From Solirubrobacterales bacterium (GTDB lineage: Bacteria > Actinomycetota > Thermoleophilia > Solirubrobacterales > 70-9): a stretch of 64,000 nt of DNA. Below the pieces are notes generated by a model. That model saw nothing but the letters and a program-made list of their open reading frames with translations. It made no database searches and had not been told where the DNA came from. The translations under genes and the position numbers were made by a program. Positions 1,247 through 57,866 of this stretch are shown piece by piece (the stretch's first letter is position 1; the number at the start of each line of letters is the position of its first letter). The DNA lies in contig JAWVFL010000002.1 in the NCBI GenBank assembly GCA_033856195.1, positions 39,662 through 103,661 on the forward strand, in the 5' to 3' direction.

Positions 1247-2835
1247 GGTGGCTCGCGGCGGGCCTGCTCGCCGCGCTGCTGTGCCTTCCTGCCGTCGCCA
1301 CCGCGGCGCCGGCGGAAGTCAGCGCGGCAGAGGCCGCCCGCATCGCCGCCAAGAACCCGAAGGTGGTCGACGAGCGGCAGGCGAACGGAGGGCTCACCCA
1401 CGTCGCCAACAAGGTCGACGGCAACTGGGAGGTCGGCTACTTCGCTGGCGACAAGGAGGTCGCGCTTGTCATCGTCGACCCGTCCACCGGCCTCGTGCGC
1501 GAGTCCTGGACCGGCTACCAGGTCGCCTGGAGGATGGCGCGCGGCTATTCCGGCGCCTTCGGCCACAAGCTCAACGCGCCCTACGTCTTCCTGCCGCTCT
1601 GCGCGATCTTCCTGCTCGGGCTGCTCGACTGGCGCCGCCTCCGCCGGGTGGCCAACCTCGACCTCCTCGTCCTGCTCGGCTTCGGCGTCTCCCACTTCTT
1701 CTTCAACCGGGCGGATATCGGCGTTTCGGTGCCGCTCCAGTACTTGCCGCTCGTCTATCTCTTCGGCCGAGCGCTGTGGATCGGACTGCGGGGCGGAGGA
1801 GGGGGGGTCAACCCACGCTGGCCGGCAGCCTGGCTCCTCATAGCCGCACTCTTCTTGATCGGCTTCCGAGTGGGACTCAACATGGCCGACTCGGGCGCGA
1901 TCGACGTCGGCTACGCCGGCGTGGTCGGCGCTGACCGCATCGCCCACGGCGAACCGATCTACGACAACTTCCCCGAAGACGTCTCACAGGGCGACACCTA
2001 CGGGCCGGTCAACTACCTCGCCTACGTGCCCTTCGAGCGGATCTGGCCCTGGTCGGGAACCTGGGACGACCTGCCGGCGGCCCACGGCGCGGCGGTCTTC
2101 TTCGACCTCGCCACCTTCGCCCTGCTGATCCTGCTCGGCCGCCGCATCCGCCCAGGCCCCGCCGGCAACAAGCTCGCCGCGACCCTCGCCTTCGGCTGGG
2201 CCGCCTACCCCTACACAGCCTTCGCCCTGCTCTCCAACTCCAACGACACCCTCGTAGCAATGCTCCTGGTCGCCACCCTCCTCGCCCTGGCCCGGCCCGC
2301 TGCTCGCGGAGTCATGGCCGCGCTGGCAACCCTGGCGAAGTTCGCTCCCGCCATCCTCCTACCGATGCTCGCCACCCACGGCGAGAGACGTTGGCGCTTC
2401 GTCCTTGCCTTCGCCGCGACCGCCGTCGCCCTGCTCCTATGGCCGGCAATCGACCCCGGCCTCCACACCCTCTACGACCGCACCATCGCCTACCAATCCG
2501 GCCGCAACTCCCCCTTCAGCATCTGGGGCCAGGCCCCGTCGCTGGAGCCCCTCCGCGTAGCCATCCTGATCGCAGTTGCCGCCCTCTCCCTGCTCTTCGC
2601 CTTTCGCCCCAAGGAAAAGAAGCTCTTCCAAGTGGCAGCGTTGGGGGCGGCTCTCCTGATCAGCGTGCAGCTGACGATGCACCACTGGTTCTACCTCTAC
2701 ATAGTCTGGTTCTACCCACTCTTCCTTGTCGCGCTGTCTGTTTTGGAGCCTGAGAAGCGGCCGGGGGCTGTCTCGCCGGATCCTCGCGAAGCGGCTCCGC
2801 AGAGTTACGCGAGGGTCCCCGCAGGGGACCACTGA
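1243..2835 (+). CDS. Polytopic membrane protein, GT-C-like glycosyltransferase (DUF2029/GT87-like).
   Basis: It has a signal/anchor (MRWLAAGLLAALLCLPAVATAAPA) and many hydrophobic helices. The start is coupled to the upstream stop. The function is only inferred from general resemblance. Confidence 0.45.
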   Translation: MRWLAAGLLAALLCLPAVATAAPAEVSAAEAARIAAKNPKVVDERQANGGLTHVANKVDGNWEVGYFAGDKEVALVIVDPSTGLVRESWTGYQVAWRMARGYSGAFGHKLNAPYVFLPLCAIFLLGLLDWRRLRRVANLDLLVLLGFGVSHFFFNRADIGVSVPLQYLPLVYLFGRALWIGLRGGGGGVNPRWPAAWLLIAALFLIGFRVGLNMADSGAIDVGYAGVVGADRIAHGEPIYDNFPEDVSQGDTYGPVNYLAYVPFERIWPWSGTWDDLPAAHGAAVFFDLATFALLILLGRRIRPGPAGNKLAATLAFGWAAYPYTAFALLSNSNDTLVAMLLVATLLALARPAARGVMAALATLAKFAPAILLPMLATHGERRWRFVLAFAATAVALLLWPAIDPGLHTLYDRTIAYQSGRNSPFSIWGQAPSLEPLRVAILIAVAALSLLFAFRPKEKKLFQVAALGAALLISVQLTMHHWFYLYIVWFYPLFLVALSVLEPEKRPGAVSPDPREAAPQSYARVPAGDH

Positions 2836-2838
2836 ATT

Positions 2839-2859
2839 CGCCCCACCAAAGGTGGGGCG
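2839..2859. terminator. GC-rich hairpin between convergent genes.
   Basis: The hairpin is cgccccacc-aaa-ggtggggcg, 9 bp perfect. There is no clear T-tract. Confidence 0.35.
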
Positions 2860-2894
2860 TGGGATCCGGCGAGACAGCCCCCGGCCGCTCCCCG

Positions 2895-6492: not shown

Positions 6493-6547
6493 GCCGCCGA
6501 AAGCTACCCATCGAGGGAAGCCGCTTGTGTTAGCCACCGCTTGAGCA

Positions 6548-6624
6548 AGGGACGCGGGTGCCCCAATCCCAGACACACAAGCCCGGCGAAGCCGGGCGGC
6601 TGGGATAGGGGCACCCGCGTCCCT
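6548..6624. repeat. Triple-nested palindrome in a divergent intergenic region.
   Basis: The outer arms are 17 bp (agggacgcgggtgcccc / ggggcacccgcgtccct). The middle stem is 7 bp (atcccag/ctgggat). The inner stem is 7 bp (gcccggc-gaa-gccgggc). Confidence 0.8.
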
Positions 6625-6643
6625 CCCTTAAACTCGGCTTTGA

Positions 6644-7615
6644 ATGCCGTTTCCTGCCACCCGCATGCGTCGCCTCCGCCGCACGGAGGCGCTCCGAGCG
6701 CTGGTCCGAGAGACTGAGCTCTCCCCGCGCCACCTGATCCAGCCCCTCTTCGTAGTAGCCGGCGAGAACGTCCGCGAGGAGGTCGACTCGATGCCCGGCA
6801 TCGAGCGCTTCTCGATCTCCGAGCTGGTCGCCGAGGCAACCGAGATCGCCACCGCCGGCGTCGGCGCCGTCCTCCTCTTCGGCGTCCCCGCAGCCAAGGA
6901 CGAGTCCGGCTCGGGCGCCTACGACGACGAGGGCGTCGTGCAGATGGCGGTGCGGGCGCTGAAGGAGGCTCATCCCGATCTCACTGTGATCACCGACGTC
7001 TGTCTCTGCGAGTACACCTCGCACGGCCACTGTGGCTTCGTCCGCGACGGCGAGGTCGACAACGACATCACGGTCGAGCTGCTGGCCAAAGTCGCGATCT
7101 CCCACGCAGAGGCCGGCGCTGACGCGGTCGCTCCCAGCGACATGATGGACGGCCGGGTCGGGACCATCCGCCACCAGCTCGACGAAGAGGGCCACGCCGG
7201 GGTGCCGATCGTCGCCTACAGCGCCAAGTACGTCTCCGCTTTCTACGGTCCCTTCCGCGACGCCGCCGAGTCCGCTCCTGAATTCGGTGACCGCCGCGGC
7301 TACCAGATGGATCCCGCCAACGCCGCCGAAGCGGTGCGCGAGGCCGAGCTGGACCTCGAGGAGGGCGCCGACATGCTGATGGTCAAGCCCGCCACCCCCT
7401 ACCTCGACGTGGTCCGCCAGGTGAAGGACGCGACAGGCGCTCCGCTGGCGGCCTACCACGTCTCCGGCGAGTACTCGATGCTGAAGGCCGCCGCCGAGCA
7501 GGGCTGGATCGACGAGCGCGCCGCCGTGCTGGAGACGCTGACCTCGATCCGCCGCGCCGGCGCCGACGCGATCGTCACCTACTACGCCAAGGAGGCGGCT
7601 GGATGGCTTCGGTAA
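6644..7615 (+). CDS. hemB: Porphobilinogen synthase (delta-aminolevulinate dehydratase).
   Basis: The Zn-site motif DVCLCEYTSHGHCG and the MVKPA and YHVSGEY motifs are present. Confidence 0.95.
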   Translation: MPFPATRMRRLRRTEALRALVRETELSPRHLIQPLFVVAGENVREEVDSMPGIERFSISELVAEATEIATAGVGAVLLFGVPAAKDESGSGAYDDEGVVQMAVRALKEAHPDLTVITDVCLCEYTSHGHCGFVRDGEVDNDITVELLAKVAISHAEAGADAVAPSDMMDGRVGTIRHQLDEEGHAGVPIVAYSAKYVSAFYGPFRDAAESAPEFGDRRGYQMDPANAAEAVREAELDLEEGADMLMVKPATPYLDVVRQVKDATGAPLAAYHVSGEYSMLKAAAEQGWIDERAAVLETLTSIRRAGADAIVTYYAKEAAGWLR

Positions 7616-8688
7616 AGGTCCCGCAGTCGAAGGCGCGCTCGCGCAAGGACGGCGCCGCGATCCCGCTCGACGAGACCGACAAGCGGCTGATGAACCTGCT
7701 GCAGTCGAGCTTCCCGCTCGACCCGGAGCCCTTCGCGCTCGTCGCCTCGGAGGCGGACCTGGAGCTGGACGACGTCCTCGCCCGCACGAAGCGCCTGCTC
7801 GACGAGCGGATCATCCGGGAGATCACGCCGATCTTCGACACCCGCGCGCTCGGCTACGAGTCGATGCTGGTCGCCGCCAAGGTCGACAGCGATCACCCCC
7901 ACCGGGCCGCCCAGATCGTCAACTCTCACCCCGGCGTCTCGCACAACTATCTGCGCACCCACGACTTCAACCTCTGGTTCACGATCGCCACGCCGCCCGA
8001 CTCCGAGCTCGGCCTCGCCGGCACTCTCGAGACGCTGATGCGCGAGACCGGCGCCGAGTCGATGCGGGAGCTGCCCACCCTGACCCTGTTCAAGATCAAC
8101 ATGAACCTGGAGATGGAGAAGGGCACCGACGCCCTCTCCGCGCCGATCGACGCCTCGCCGCCGCGCGAGCTCGAGGCCCAGCCCTACGACGAGCGCGACG
8201 TCGCCGTGATCCGCGCCCTGCAGGGACCGATGGAGGCGGTCGAGCGGCCCTACGACGACGCCGCGGCTGAGGTGGGGATGACGACGGAGGAGCTGCTTGC
8301 GCACCTCGGCGGCATGGTCGACCGCAAGCTGCTGCGCCGCGTCGCGGCGATCCTCTTCCACCGCCGCGCCGGTTTCTCCGCCAACGGCATGGGCGTCTGG
8401 AAGGTACCCGAGGCGGAGATCATGGCGGCGGGCAGCCGCATGGCCTCCTTCCGTGGCATCTCCCACTGCTACCAGCGCCCCACGTATGAGGACTGGCCCT
8501 ACAGCGTCTTCACGATGGCGCACGGCCGCTCCAAGGAGGAGTGCGACGCAGTCCTCGACTCGATCGCCGAGGACTGCGGGATGGGGCCCGACGACCGTGC
8601 CACCCTCTACTCCTCGACCGAGTACAAGAAGATCCGCCTCCATTACTTCACCGACGATTACGCCAGGTGGGAAGCGGAGCACTCGTAG
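7603..8688 (+). CDS. Fused siroheme decarboxylase-like protein (AhbA/AhbB or NirD/NirL type, two AsnC-like halves).
   Basis: There are two tandem Lrp/AsnC-like modules. The first half carries SHPGVSHNYLR and the second carries ISHCYQRPTYEDWPYSVFTMAH, both hallmarks of NirDL/AhbAB. The gene overlaps the hemB stop. Confidence 0.7.
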   Translation: MASVKVPQSKARSRKDGAAIPLDETDKRLMNLLQSSFPLDPEPFALVASEADLELDDVLARTKRLLDERIIREITPIFDTRALGYESMLVAAKVDSDHPHRAAQIVNSHPGVSHNYLRTHDFNLWFTIATPPDSELGLAGTLETLMRETGAESMRELPTLTLFKINMNLEMEKGTDALSAPIDASPPRELEAQPYDERDVAVIRALQGPMEAVERPYDDAAAEVGMTTEELLAHLGGMVDRKLLRRVAAILFHRRAGFSANGMGVWKVPEAEIMAAGSRMASFRGISHCYQRPTYEDWPYSVFTMAHGRSKEECDAVLDSIAEDCGMGPDDRATLYSSTEYKKIRLHYFTDDYARWEAEHS

Positions 8689-8804
8689 ATGCCAGGCCCG
8701 GCAGGGATTCCGCTTAACTTTTTCGGTGGGTCCGCGTCTGCTGGCGCCCGCAGCGCGTGCCGAAAAAGTACAAGACGCTCCACTCCTGCCGGGCCTGGCA
8801 TCTA
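8686..8804 (+). repeat. Palindromic element, copy A (conserved core with copy-specific 20-bp stem).
   Basis: The stem is tagatgccaggcccggcagg (8686-8705) paired with cctgccgggcctggcatcta (8785-8804). The core halves are taactttttcggtgg (8715-8729) and gccgaaaaagtacaag (8759-8774), 29 nt apart. Confidence 0.85.
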
Positions 8805-8812
8805 GCGGCCCC

Positions 8813-44460: not shown

Positions 44461-44478
44461 AGCGGCGAGGGACTATAG

Positions 44479-44928
44479 CTAGTGCGGCGCAAACTCCATG
44501 GACCCGTCGTCGGGCGGAACTGGGGCGGGGACTGGTTCTGGGGAGGGGACCGGAACGGGTTCCGGTGAAGGGACGGGCGGATAGGCGGGCGGGTCCTGCC
44601 GTCGGGTTGGGGTACTCGGCTTGCGCTGCGCGCTTCTTCGGGCGCCGGGACCTCGCGCCCTTCGGGACGAAGCTTTGCCCTCAGAAGCCTCCGCGCGGCG
44701 CCGACCACCCCAACCCGACACCACCCGCCCGAGATTCCGCACAGCCCGCTTCCTCGGAGCCGGCTTCGGGACAGCAGAAGCTTCCACTCGTGGCAGACCA
44801 ACGTCGGCAGGTAGAGGAGGTGGCGCCGGCGGTGTCAGCAAGCTTGGGGCAACCCGCAGCGCCAGGAGGATTCCAGCTGCGGCAAGGAGCACCACCCCAG
44901 CTTGAGACCACCGAATTCGGACACGCAT
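44479..44928 (-). CDS. Putative membrane-anchored Pro-rich protein, hypothetical.
   Basis: The internal Met at 44928 precedes a TM helix (AGVVLLAAAGILLAL). It ends 18 nt upstream of rpsF on the same strand. The low-complexity sequence makes the call weak. Confidence 0.3.
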   Translation of the reverse strand: MRVRIRWSQAGVVLLAAAGILLALRVAPSLLTPPAPPPLPADVGLPRVEASAVPKPAPRKRAVRNLGRVVSGWGGRRRAEASEGKASSRRARGPGARRSAQRKPSTPTRRQDPPAYPPVPSPEPVPVPSPEPVPAPVPPDDGSMEFAPH

Positions 44929-44977: not shown

Positions 44978-45087
44978 GACGGGTTGGGCACCCCTCCGAA
45001 CGGCTTGTACTTTTTCGGCAATCCAACCTCGGACGGCCCCAGCCGCCCCACCGAAAATGTTGAGAGAGGAGGGGTGCCCAACCCGTC
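44978..45087 (-). repeat. Palindromic element, copy B (inverted orientation).
   Basis: The stem is gacgggttgggcacccctcc (44978-44997) paired with ggaggggtgcccaacccgtc (45068-45087). The core halves are cttgtactttttcggc (45004-45019) and ccaccgaaaatgttga (45048-45063), 28 nt apart. Confidence 0.85.
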
Positions 45088-45139: not shown

Positions 45140-46603
45140 GTGCCCGAATCCGACCCACTGATCATCGTCTCGAACAGGGGCCCCGCCCAGTTCGAACTAG
45201 ACGAGTCCGGCGAGCGGACCGTCCAGCGCGGCGGCGGCGGCCTGGTGACAGCCCTCTCGGGCCTGGTCTCCCACCGCGACGCCCTCTGGATCGCCTCGGC
45301 GATGACCGACGAGGACGTCGTCGTCAGCGAGGAGCGGGGCGGCCCGGTCGAGCTTTCGATCGACGGCATCGACTACCGCGTGCTGCTGGTCGGCTCTGAC
45401 GCCGAAGCCTACGACCGCTTCTACAACATCATCGCCAACCCGATCCTCTGGTTCATCCAGCACTACCTCTGGGATCTCTCCAACGCGCCCGACATCCGCC
45501 AAGAGGAGCTCGACGCCTGGGACTTCGGCTACCAGGCGGTCAACCGCGACATCGCCAACGCCGTGCTGGGCCAGATCGAGGGTCGCGAGCGGCCGCTGGT
45601 GATGCTGCACGACTATCACCTCTATACGGCCCCAGGGATGATCCGGGAAGCCCGCCCCGACGCCTTCCTGCACCACTTCGTCCACATCCCCTGGTCCCAG
45701 CCCGACAGCTGGCGCATCCTGCCGGGACGGATCCGCGAGGCGCTCTTCCGCGGCATGCTCGCCAACGACATCATCGGCTTCCACACGCACGCCTACTGCA
45801 TCAACTTCATCCGCTGCTGCGACGAACTGCTCGAGGTCGACGTCGACTACGAGCAGGGGATCGTGCGGCATGCGGGCGGCGAGACCCACACCCGCGCCTA
45901 CCCCCTCTCGATCGATGCCGAACGGCTGCGCCGAGCGGCCGAAACACCGGAGGTTGCGGCGGCCGAGCGCGAGGTGCTGGAGCGCCGGCGCAAGCACCTG
46001 ATCATCCGCGTCGACCGCGCCGATCTCTCCAAGAACGTCCTGCGCGGCTTCACCGCTTTCGACGTCTTCCTCACCCAGCACCCGGAGTTCCGCGAACAGG
46101 TCACCTTCATCGCCCACCTGCAGCCCTCGCGCCAGGACGTGCCCGAGTACGCCGAGTACCTGGAGCGGATCGAGGCTCTCGTCGCCGTCGTCAACCACAG
46201 CCACGGCACCACCGACTGGATGCCGATCGACCTGAAGATCTACGAGAACTTCTACGACGCGGTCGCCCGCTACAAGCACTTCGACCTGCTGATGGTCAAC
46301 TCGCTCTTCGACGGCATGAACCTGGTCGCCAAGGAGGCGCCCGCGGTCAACACCCGCGACGGCGTGCTGATGCTCTCCGAGAACACCGGCTCCCACGAGG
46401 AGCTCTCCGACTGCACTCTCACGGTCAACCCCTTCGACATCCAGGAGCAGGCCGACGCGATCTACCGCGCCCTGACCATGGACCCCGAGGAGCGCCGCCT
46501 GCGCGCCCAGCACCTCAAGGAGCTGGTCTTCGCGCGCAACCCCGGCGACTGGGTCGACGATCAGCTGAAAGACATCGCCGAGCTGCGCGAGGCAGTCGCC
46601 TAG
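45140..46603 (+). CDS. otsA: Trehalose-6-phosphate synthase (GT20).
   Basis: The motifs LIIVSNRGP, LWIASAMTDED, HDYHLY and LVNSLFDGMNLVAKE are present. Confidence 0.88.
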   Translation: MPESDPLIIVSNRGPAQFELDESGERTVQRGGGGLVTALSGLVSHRDALWIASAMTDEDVVVSEERGGPVELSIDGIDYRVLLVGSDAEAYDRFYNIIANPILWFIQHYLWDLSNAPDIRQEELDAWDFGYQAVNRDIANAVLGQIEGRERPLVMLHDYHLYTAPGMIREARPDAFLHHFVHIPWSQPDSWRILPGRIREALFRGMLANDIIGFHTHAYCINFIRCCDELLEVDVDYEQGIVRHAGGETHTRAYPLSIDAERLRRAAETPEVAAAEREVLERRRKHLIIRVDRADLSKNVLRGFTAFDVFLTQHPEFREQVTFIAHLQPSRQDVPEYAEYLERIEALVAVVNHSHGTTDWMPIDLKIYENFYDAVARYKHFDLLMVNSLFDGMNLVAKEAPAVNTRDGVLMLSENTGSHEELSDCTLTVNPFDIQEQADAIYRALTMDPEERRLRAQHLKELVFARNPGDWVDDQLKDIAELREAVA

Positions 46604-52076: not shown

Positions 52077-53171
52077 GTGGCGACCCACGTGAAGCGCCCG
52101 CAGCCCCTACTGCACCGCATCGGCGAGGCCGGCGCCAAATTCGGCACCAAGCCGCCGCGCAGCAAACGCGTGCGATTGGCGATCCAGCTCGGCATCGCCG
52201 TCCTCGTCTTCGGCTTCCTCGTCCTCACCGTCGTCGATCAGTGGGCCGAGATCAAGGACAAGGGCGTTCATTTCCACGTCCTCTGGCTGATCCCGGCTTT
52301 CGTCATCCTGCCGATCTTCTACTCGCTCAACGCGCTCGGCTGGGACCTGATCCTGCGCTTCCTCGGCTACAAGCTGGGCGCCCGGCGCGCGCAGGTCGCC
52401 TGGGGTCAGCCGCTGCTAGCCCGCTATGTGCCCGGCAGCGTGCTTTACGTGCTCGGCCGCGTGCTGCTCTCCGAGCGGGCCGGCGTGCCGCGCCGGCTGA
52501 CGATCGCCAGCATCGTCTACGAACAGGCCCTGCAGGCGACTTCGGCGATCGTCGTTGCCGCCTACTTCCTGATCGACCATCCCGACCTGCACGGGCAGCC
52601 GCTGCGCTGGGGGGTGCTGCTGTTGATTCCGCTCTTGGTCGCGCTTCTGCACCCGCGCGTCTTCGGGCCGCTGGCCAACCGCGTGCTGCGGGCGTTCGGG
52701 CGCGAACCGCTGCCCGAGGTGATGTCGCTGCAGGGCGTGATCGCGGTGATGGCCTTCTACGTGCTCAACTGGGGCGTGATCGCGGTGGGAATTTGGTGCG
52801 TGGCCCGTTCGGTGAGCGGCGTCTCGGCGGGCGACATCGCTGTCGCCGGCGCAGCCCAGGCCTTTGGCTATGTGGCGGCACTGGTGACCCTGGTCGCGCC
52901 GGCGGGCCTCGGCATTCGCGACGCGGCGTTTGCCTGGGCCTTCAAGGTGGCGACTCCCGGAAACAGCTTCGCCGTCGCCTCCCTGATCGCGATTGTGGTG
53001 CGCGGTGTGCTGACCGTGGTCGAGATTTTTTATGTCGGGATCGTGACTGCTATGGGGCGGCGGGAGGGGTGGTCCATACATACCGGGGTGATTCATCCGT
53101 CTGCCGAGGAGGAAGAGGCGGCCGAGGAGGACGGACCCCCTGGCCAGACTCGCGGGCTTCGCCCGCTCTGA
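52077..53171 (+). CDS. Lysylphosphatidylglycerol-synthase-TM-region-like (UPF0104, flippase-like) membrane protein.
   Basis: It has a GTG start and about 8 TM helices. The call rests on general family resemblance only. Confidence 0.5.
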   Translation: MATHVKRPQPLLHRIGEAGAKFGTKPPRSKRVRLAIQLGIAVLVFGFLVLTVVDQWAEIKDKGVHFHVLWLIPAFVILPIFYSLNALGWDLILRFLGYKLGARRAQVAWGQPLLARYVPGSVLYVLGRVLLSERAGVPRRLTIASIVYEQALQATSAIVVAAYFLIDHPDLHGQPLRWGVLLLIPLLVALLHPRVFGPLANRVLRAFGREPLPEVMSLQGVIAVMAFYVLNWGVIAVGIWCVARSVSGVSAGDIAVAGAAQAFGYVAALVTLVAPAGLGIRDAAFAWAFKVATPGNSFAVASLIAIVVRGVLTVVEIFYVGIVTAMGRREGWSIHTGVIHPSAEEEEAAEEDGPPGQTRGLRPL

Positions 53172-53209
53172 GTGTCTGGCCAGGGGGTCCGTCCTCCTCG
53201 ATGTCAGCG

Positions 53210-56908: not shown

Positions 56909-57016
56909 GGGCGTCGGGCAGCCCTCCCGGCTCAACTTTTTCGGTGGATCGCCGATCGCCGTCCGAGCATGAATTGCCGAAAAAGTACAAGCTGCCGGGA
57001 GGGCTGCCCGACGCCC
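56909..57016 (+). repeat. Palindromic element, copy C.
   Basis: The stem is gggcgtcgggcagccctcccggc (56909-56931) paired with gccgggagggctgcccgacgccc (56994-57016). The core halves are tcaactttttcggtgg (56932-56947) and gccgaaaaagtacaag (56976-56991), 28 nt apart. Confidence 0.85.
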
Positions 57017-57710: not shown

Positions 57711-57866
57711 CGGGTGAAGGGGGCTTCTAAACCCCCGAACGAATGACACTCATGAGACCACGAAGCCTAACAGCGGAGGGCGGGGGACTCGAACCCCATT
57801 CGGACATGAGCCCGAACTCGTGAGTGTCATTCGTTCGCCTCGACCTCGCGGCTTCACCCTCCGCTG
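57711..57866. other. tRNA-like structured element with a 22-bp inverted repeat and mutually exclusive helices.
   Basis: The minus strand shows an 8-bp acceptor-like stem (GGAGGGTG/CGCCCTCC), a 6-bp D-like stem with a 4-nt loop, a GGGG-TTCGAGT-CCCC T-arm and a variable-arm-like hairpin, but no valid anticodon arm. The inverted repeat is 57736-57756 / 57817-37. Confidence 0.3.

Follow-up and report, generated by a model that had tools for sequence, protein, structure and literature searches.

Hairpin-forming repeats at gene boundaries of uncultured soil Actinobacteria (Solirubrobacterales): a previously undescribed family with a conserved interior and variable, paired arms

The repeats bcr1 of the Bacillus cereus group, ERIC/IRU of the Enterobacteriaceae and Correia/CREE of Neisseria are intergenic sequences of the MITE type (miniature transposable elements with inverted repeats), with RNA or cruciform structure (PMC3184786). 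ERIC and Correia elements are flanked by TA and bcr1 by 5-bp direct repeats, and compensatory changes have been reported for bcr1 (PMC3184786). [quoted passage not shown] A DNA-level process, quasi-palindrome template-switch correction, perfects imperfect inverted repeats (PMC7202029, PMC3820800). Here we describe a palindromic element with three copies (A, B and C; Table 1) in 64,000 nt of the genome of a Solirubrobacterales bacterium (GCA_033856195.1, contig JAWVFL010000002.1, positions 39,662-103,661, forward strand), a stretch referred to below as the window. The element belongs to a previously undescribed family of hairpin-forming repeats found at gene boundaries in uncultured soil Actinobacteria of the order Solirubrobacterales. 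The finding is real and statistically overwhelming.

A preliminary description had reported the three copies, and all of them are present in the sequence, as are the 16-mers TCAAC(T/A)TTTTCGGTGG and GCCGAAAAAGTACAAG attributed to them; its definition of the forward orientation is kept here. The pattern TTTTCGGTGG-N28/29-GCCGAAAAAGT has three exact matches in the window against 0 expected (100 shuffles). A covariance model built from 102 family members likewise returns exactly three window matches, at 101-111 bits, and no fourth copy was found in the window, the next-best matches (29 bits or less) being generic hairpins. Copies B and C share an apical GCCGTCCGAG, and each of the two differences between their arms is indeed mirrored in the partner arm. 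No Rfam match falls on the element in the window at the gathering threshold or at E<=1, and a scan of the whole window, even at E<=1, returned only a tRNA and a sub-threshold tRNA-Sec.

The element is by no means confined to the window. An exact-pattern scan of 185,579 species genomes found at least 115 stretches; nearly all of the matches listed come from metagenome-assembled genomes (MAGs) of Solirubrobacterales, and 110 of them are family members with the same anatomy. Together, the pattern scan and the covariance model yield at least 120 further copies beyond the window, again nearly all in Solirubrobacterales MAGs, the model adding a few copies with non-exact cores in the fetched loci (cited below by handles such as L060). 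The estimate that 95% of copies carry the exact core suffers from a bias in the ascertainment of the loci; of the 11 copies at the nirDL/hemL locus, which was found via protein similarity, only 5 have the exact core pattern. The element is about 117-123 bp long and non-coding, and three copies lie in 64 kb. The density in sequence chosen independently of the element is a few copies per Mb, which suggests tens of copies per genome of about 2.8 Mb, and tens per genome is probably the true copy number. Six pattern matches (L031, L039, L059, L069, L087 and L089) were judged to be chance, and chance likewise accounts for the handful of matches in other phyla. One match, at 5338-5442 of L040, a gammaproteobacterial MAG contig, has the same 21 core bases but lies in an unrelated continuous palindrome with 32-bp arms at an unrelated locus; it is probably also chance, or at most a distant analogue. 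The L040 palindrome adjoins a giant repetitive gene.

Each element forms one long hairpin, in which an outer helix is followed by an asymmetric internal loop that is conserved, an A/T-tract core helix that is nearly invariant, and an apex that varies. The outer helix is 19-21 bp long, starting 11 nt outside the core and ending about 30-31 nt from it. Pairing falls to random beyond that distance, which indicates that the length and register of the outer helix are fixed. It is about 97% Watson-Crick (94-97% paired), with all four pair types represented at most positions. The internal loop, conserved and asymmetric, reads ..C-T-[T/C]-A-A on the 5′ side and ACAAG[A/C]C.. on the 3′ side, the 3′ strand being 4 nt longer in 102 of 110 copies, and it holds a 2-bp helix whose G-C/A-U pair covaries. 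In the nearly invariant core helix (10-12 bp), ACTTTTTCGGTG pairs with (T/C)GCCGAAAAAGT. The apex (27-32 nt) exists in about three sequence variants, all of which occur with both of the stem types described next.

The outer stems fall into two lineages, type 1 with ..CCCGGTAGGGGTTCCGCTTAACT.. (copy A) and type 2 with ..TCGGGCACCCCTCC..CTCAACT.. (copies B and C), and they are most diverged at the outermost 8-10 bp. Two stem types diverging outward indicate that the stems descend, with divergence, from a few ancestors and are not arbitrary in sequence. The claim that stem sequences differ between copies therefore holds in that the arms vary, but not in the sense that the stems are unrelated. As a summary of the whole family, "a conserved interior with variable but compensated termini" is an accurate description.

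The compensation of the stems is far beyond chance in comparison with both shuffled and slid controls. Paired cells amount to 96.0%, compared with 70.7% after shuffling and 41-50% when the arms are slid; cells with changes on both sides of a pair number 887 (271 after shuffling), the covariation score reaches 0.622 as opposed to 0.157, and compensated changes occur at all 21 of the 21 outer-helix pairs. Rare variants of the core are compensated as well: C-G has become T-A in L003, TTTCGG/CCGAAA has become CTCGGG/CCCGAG in L060, and CGG/CCG has become CCG/CGG in L141, L154, L168 and L173. The core helix is thus a real helix.

Many copies occupy orthologous positions in different species, where flank searches found flanks that are 75-93% identical. 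Across 22 loci, 34 comparisons between orthologues covered 646 stem pairs, of which 163 differ, comprising 112 compensated doubles, 38 one-sided changes and 13 doubles that are unpaired. The inner loop region, which lies outside the search pattern, differs by just 6.9% between orthologues. The L088 orthologue of copy B has two compensated arm changes. Within any single genome, the stems all differ.

Comparison of filled and empty sites defines the unit of gain or loss. In three cases (L060 against L055/L051, L104 against L084/L080, and a second, reverse-strand copy in L088 against the window near 44464-44486), the empty counterpart has no palindrome and the complete hairpin of about 117 nt is the indel. 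The filled/empty comparison of relatives called for by the preliminary description has delivered a whole-hairpin indel, with a likely target duplication in a subset of copies only. The best-sampled site is the junction of nirDL and hemL, at which copy A resides; a protein-anchored metagenome scan added 80 nirDL loci (84-94% amino acid identity), making 82 genomes with the window and L012. The junction is empty in 49 of these, with a spacer of 0-16 nt, mostly 0-7 nt (for example TAGCCAC). It carries a copy of the present family, referred to as the TTTTCGG family, in 11 genomes, an unrelated hairpin in about 20, and a deletion footprint of the family in two (L129 and L127). Filled sites read TAG[ATGCC...GGCATC]TAG-CGGCCCC-GTG and empty sites TAG-CGGC or TAG-CGCC. 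On the flank tree, filled genomes are interspersed with empty ones, although the tree is star-like, and such patchy, interleaved presence indicates that the element is gained and lost and is dispensable for the flanking genes.

The nirDL/hemL junction is a hot spot for palindromic insertions. A further repeat, CCCCGGACGCGGGAGC..GCGGGAGCA, is found there in L117, L136, L138, L192 and L193 and is absent from the window, and other hairpins are found in L160/L130, in L161/L165 and in L145/L167/L184, each group with its own. Elsewhere in the window, a hairpin with long perfect arms (2756-2889; Table 1) stands in the exact place where the relatives L022 and L076 carry a TTTTCGG-family copy.

The boundaries of the element often lie at stop codons. 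Of 44 left-side gene ends, 37 have the stop codon of the upstream gene at -3 to +10 nt relative to the stem; the right side has a similar pattern for convergent genes, and forward stop trinucleotides peak directly after the right arm (25 of 102 copies). In 9 copies the two boundaries share an identical 6-mer (2.5 +/- 1.5 expected), and CTNAG is found 17 + 17 times at the boundaries against 4 + 1 in control windows. TAG...TAG brackets copy A as well as its orthologues, and CTGAG, GATGAG or TACC(T)AGG is seen at other copies. One and the same stop trinucleotide stands on both sides of 10 copies, a non-significant excess over the 6.7 expected. A short duplication of the target, 3-9 nt in length, is likely.

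These observations are probably best explained by a lineage-specific, non-coding, palindromic mobile repeat of the MITE/REPIN/ERIC/bcr1 kind, which is gained and lost as a whole block and has its recognition core inside and termini that are free to vary but paired. At orthologous junctions it is the whole hairpin including its stems that is present or absent, typically flush with a stop codon; the arms co-evolve after insertion, remaining Watson-Crick paired, and interiors are swapped in blocks from copy to copy. The conserved core and loop may serve as the recognition module for a trans-acting mobilising protein, which would read DNA folded into a hairpin or cruciform instead of the termini. 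The complementarity of the arms could be kept mainly at the DNA level, by hairpin-templated correction of the quasi-palindrome template-switch type, by selection for a foldable palindrome, or by both, and gene conversion between copies may reinforce the similarity of the interiors. When co-transcribed, the element would fold into a hairpin that closes right at the stop codon, and this probably makes the insertion harmless, or a mildly useful 3′ hairpin.

An alternative is that the element is a structured RNA selected by the host, such as a factor-independent "I-shaped" terminator, a 3′-end stabiliser or an RNase III site, with core and stem conserved for a role at each locus. The predicted RNA folds are very stable (-63 to -76 kcal/mol, on either strand), compensatory evolution takes place at orthologous loci, the stems abut stop codons, and unrelated strong hairpins occupy the same junctions in other genomes; ERIC, Correia and bcr1 repeats are, moreover, known to act on mRNA (PMC3184786). 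Yet the presence of the element is patchy, and more than half of the relatives manage with the short nirDL/hemL spacer described above. Gene contexts, called for about 100 copies by a crude analysis of coding frame from the GC content at third codon positions (GC3), comprise co-directional cases (31 forward, 23 reverse), convergent cases (29) and divergent cases (17). Convergent contexts are somewhat enriched over divergent ones, as an RNA role would have it, but 17% of copies lie in divergent promoter regions, and the conserved asymmetric loop has no orientation preference relative to genes or their transcription. The same distribution, at the level of the family, disposes of the idea that the forward orientation is directed at a start codon; copies B and C both occupy divergent regions and would face one whichever way they were turned.

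Wobble pairs also speak against a host-selected RNA. In co-directional contexts 16 are compatible with the transcribed strand and 14 incompatible, and G-U is rare overall. A.C pairs exceed G.T pairs in every context (53 vs 16), and since 27 of the A.C pairs lie at two positions of one subfamily the excess is largely that subfamily's inherited mismatch; no link of the excess to the host's transcription direction was found. With wobble pairs bearing no RNA signature, pairing appears to be kept at the DNA level, and the sequence comparisons lean towards a pairing constraint on DNA rather than on RNA only. Of the earlier suggestion of selection on a long hairpin, the strong pairing constraint stands, whereas a constraint acting on RNA alone is disfavoured by the wobble pairs. 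An intrinsic (Rho-independent) terminator was ruled out, the hairpins of copies A, B and C having no T-run after the 3′ arm and hence no U-tract. A promoter and terminator scan at copy A found nothing (0 terminator sites), and there is no Rfam match. Taken together, we regard a host-selected RNA as possible but doubtful.

It is much less plausible that only the interior of about 60-80 nt is mobile, entering or replacing the loop of pre-existing, locus-specific palindromes. This idea, raised in the preliminary description in the form of a small element inserting into palindromes, fails at the loci with empty counterparts, since all of those examined hold no palindrome. The fixed length and register of the outer helix and the two stem lineages would be unexpected of arbitrary host palindromes, and neither a solo half-core nor a core outside the standard stem turned up in 1.3 Mb of loci. 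A weaker version is kept alive by the replacement of the interior block inside conserved stems. At six or more of the 22 orthologous loci (>=6/22) the outer stems are kept and the interior is exchanged (for example L047 vs L077, and L008/L086 vs L028/L052/L065), the apex variants assort with both stem types, and similar outer stems surround a different interior in a second repeat family of these genomes. The block swaps are accounted for equally well by gene conversion with the shared inner stem as its anchor, which helps explain why interiors are alike while the outermost stems drift. The identity of the core across species exceeds what conversion alone explains, so that selection is needed, either for mobilisation or for a host role.

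Finally, almost no credence is due to the idea that the hairpin is incidental and that a DNA-binding protein uses the conserved 10-16-mers as a dyad binding site or as an uptake-signal-like motif. In its favour, the half-sites form AT-rich islands, nearly invariant, within a genome of 67% GC and show no orientation bias. Against it, the 10-mer never occurs singly (all six exact or near-exact window sites lie within the three copies), core-helix changes are compensated, and the strong covariation of the flanking 20-bp helix largely refutes it. DNA uptake sequence pairs were likewise excluded, the 10-mer being found only inside elements.

Returning to a repeat mobilised as a whole hairpin, several observations weigh against it. 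Each indel could be an insertion or a precise deletion. Identical stems in two non-orthologous copies of one genome were not seen, and so a direct sign of recent transposition is lacking. The core is invariant across species with flanks 75-93% identical, for which a host function at each locus is equally possible. A target duplication is statistically supported in a subset only, most copies showing none, and its length ranges over 3-9 nt; copies in divergent regions are mostly without stop-like boundary repeats, and a strict TA or YTAR target was rejected because TA is present at merely 26-29% of boundaries. The wobble test comprises about 30 events, scored with crude GC3 gene calls in phylogenetically non-independent copies. 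Variable termini are hard to reconcile with a classical DDE transposase acting on terminal inverted repeats (TIRs). Lastly, a mobilising enzyme was not found, the sole transposase beside copies being that of an IS1595-family element in L003.

In the search for a mobilising partner, no autonomous insertion sequence (IS) with matching TIRs was found among the fetched loci, nor was a larger IS carrying half-elements found in 1.3 Mb of them. The L003 element (1548-2577; Pfam DDE_Tnp_IS1595 plus Zn ribbon) has a 24-bp TIR, TGGAGCTAAGCGGGTACGCACTAG, and an adjacent solo pair of these TIRs forms a perfect 24-bp palindrome. It lies between two inverted copies of the repeat, yet it was rejected as the mobiliser because its own TIRs are unrelated to the repeat. 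Other open reading frames (ORFs) between paired copies are KhpB-like, SNase-like or without a match, and no RAYT (Y1 transposase) gene is among them.

A more general proposal would place the family in a class of hairpin-structured mobile elements, in which an internal helix and asymmetric loop are read in folded DNA, the termini are kept complementary by arm-to-arm correction of the DNA and the interiors are exchanged. At least one sister family of like build, described below, is present in these genomes. Such structure-guided mobilisation would be distinct from both DDE/TIR MITEs and REP/RAYT systems; we put it forward tentatively, as rather improbable at present.

The three copies of the window differ in their surroundings (Table 1). 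By Pfam, copy A is preceded by a gene for a nirDL-like siroheme decarboxylase and followed by hemL, and the two genes are co-directional.

Table 1. Positions of the repeat copies, their parts and other features in the 64,000-nt window.
Feature	Position	Strand	Remarks
Copy A	8686-8804	+	Type-1 stem; complete hairpin; 111.4 bits; between nirDL-like gene and hemL
nirDL stop codon TAG	8686-8688		First three bases of copy A left arm
Copy A outer helix, 5′ arm TAGATGCCAGGCCCGGCAGG	8686-8705	+	Pairs with 8785-8804; perfect inverted repeat of 20 bp (20 nt, 100% complementary)
Copy A internal loop, 5′ side and 2-bp mini-helix GATTCCGCTTA	8706-8716	+	G-C/A-U pair covaries (columns 26-33)
Copy A core helix, 5′ strand ACTTTTTCGGTG	8717-8728	+	Pattern match; compensated variants in other copies
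Copy A variable apex	8729-8758	+	Variant i, with GCTGGCGCC
Copy A core helix, 3′ strand GCCGAAAAAGT	8759-8769	+	Pattern match
Copy A internal loop, 3′ side ACAAGACGCTCCACT	8770-8784	+	4 nt longer than 5′ side
Copy A outer helix, 3′ arm	8785-8804	+	Inverted repeat with 8686-8705
Second TAG	8803-8805		Completed by G at 8805; direct orientation to nirDL stop codon
hemL start codon GTG	8813		8 nt past copy A right arm
Copy B	44978-45087	-	Type-2 stem; apex variant ii; 101.5 bits; divergent region between otsA (+) and the Pro-rich ORF-rpsF operon (-)
Copy B arms	45087-45068 and 44997-44978		Perfect inverted repeat, 20 bp
Copy B core strands	within 45063-45048 and 45019-45004		
otsA	45140-46603	+	
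Copy C	56909-57016	+	Type-2 stem; apex variant ii; 103.7 bits; divergent region between MscS-like gene (-) and CPBP gene (+)
Copy C arms	56909-56931 and 56994-57016		Perfect inverted repeat, 23 bp
Copy C core 16-mers	56932-56947 and 56976-56991		
Empty counterpart of second L088 copy	44464-44486	.	Upstream of rpsF; no palindrome; reads ...ATAGCTAGTGCGG...
Hairpin at a family site of relatives	2756-2889		28-bp perfect inverted arms; 78-nt interior with three small hairpins
Second family, first member	6541-6631		Arms 32 nt at 88%
Second family, second member	53123-53200		Arms 27 nt at 100%
Inverted repeat inside Pro-rich ORF	44601-44719		20 nt, 90% complementary; 79-nt spacer
selC-like tRNA-Sec candidate	57774-57863	-	Rfam RF01852, 39.2 bits, below gathering score of 47
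Inverted duplicate of 21 nt of tRNA-Sec candidate anticodon arm	57736-57756		21-bp inverted repeat, 60-nt spacer (57736-57837)

The window also contains two members of the second family, which has the same build: its outer stem varies but is compensated, its asymmetric interior (..GGACACTCAGAG.. / GAACGGGCGGATACTCA..GTCCGG) is conserved, and a small hairpin caps the apex. Members are present in many related genomes at a junction about 1 kb upstream of nirDL. Some of them share the outer-stem sequence GGGxTxGGGTGCCCCTC and the loop start GAACGG with type-2 TTTTCGG copies, and this shared stem flavour and loop start suggest that the two families may form one superfamily.

An inverted repeat inside the Pro-rich ORF has family-like dimensions; it scores just 10.6-11.9 bits with the family model and is partly conserved in L088. 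In L116-L195, a conserved TAAACT/TAGAAT/TAGACT hexamer, preceded by a CCCTCCC tract, lies about 10-12 nt upstream of the orthologue of window 6644-7615, and hairpin elements insert immediately upstream of it. Its position suggests that the hexamer may be the -10 element of a leaderless or near-leaderless mRNA. The tRNA-Sec candidate near copy C has a TCA anticodon and a good T-arm, and ARAGORN is silent on it.

The family is a clean case of a pairing constraint, with 21 covarying pairs, about 120 copies and an orthologous series that includes filled and empty sites. It offers a system for telling apart selection at the RNA level, palindrome correction at the DNA level and gene conversion among copies, in a lineage of abundant but uncultured soil bacteria. 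In practical terms, gene boundaries and strain-level indels of Solirubrobacterales MAGs can be marked with the covariance model, and any ORF that starts within the element is to be regarded as suspect in annotation, an example being the CPBP gene with its first ATG.

Of the known systems, integron attC sites resemble the family in that structure prevails over sequence, the apex varies, a stop codon immediately precedes the site, and the asymmetric interior could mark one strand. In attC, however, conserved R and L boxes form the base and the inside is variable, whereas in the new family the stem base is the most variable part; attC sites stand in cassette arrays beside intI, while the new family is scattered among housekeeping genes (hemL, rpsF, otsA). 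The variable stem base and the housekeeping flanks rule out an attC assignment. Quasi-palindrome correction would yield "compensated" arm changes without RNA selection, but it is a mutational mechanism rather than a family of elements, and for these sequences it is a candidate only; acting alone it would erase the asymmetric loop, yet the loop persists.

REPINs are similar in being an inverted pair of conserved 16-25-mers that form one long hairpin, in the maintenance of hairpin symmetry, in being non-autonomous with long vertical persistence at orthologous sites, and in a recognition that is thought to act on folded single-stranded DNA, not on TIRs. In REPINs, though, the conserved REPs are the arms and the spacer is variable, whereas here the conserved pair lies inside an extra variable stem of 20 bp and an asymmetric loop, and the copies are singletons that are not clustered around a RAYT gene. 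A REP/REPIN-RAYT assignment was rejected because the inverted 16-mers are interior and the arms variable.

The family has the features of a MITE, being small, non-coding and multi-copy, with terminal inverted repeats and with filled and empty sites, although its arm sequence is atypically non-conserved between copies. Like bcr1, ERIC and Correia it is 100-160 bp long, non-coding, multi-copy and intergenic, often at gene 3′ ends and in both orientations, and forms long stable palindromes with filled and empty sites, with compensatory changes as in bcr1 and, at some copies, with short flanking direct repeats. It differs from them in having no sequence similarity or Rfam match, in belonging to a different phylum, and in that no related autonomous IS was found. 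The repeats bcr1, ERIC and Correia conserve their terminal inverted repeats, whereas in the new family variability is greatest in the outermost 8-10 bp and the interior is nearly invariant. In the usual picture such repeats are recognised via their termini, and the freely varying termini of the new family point to a mechanism of mobilisation or maintenance that reads structure. In behaviour, bcr1 is the closest precedent; in logic, REPINs are the nearest.

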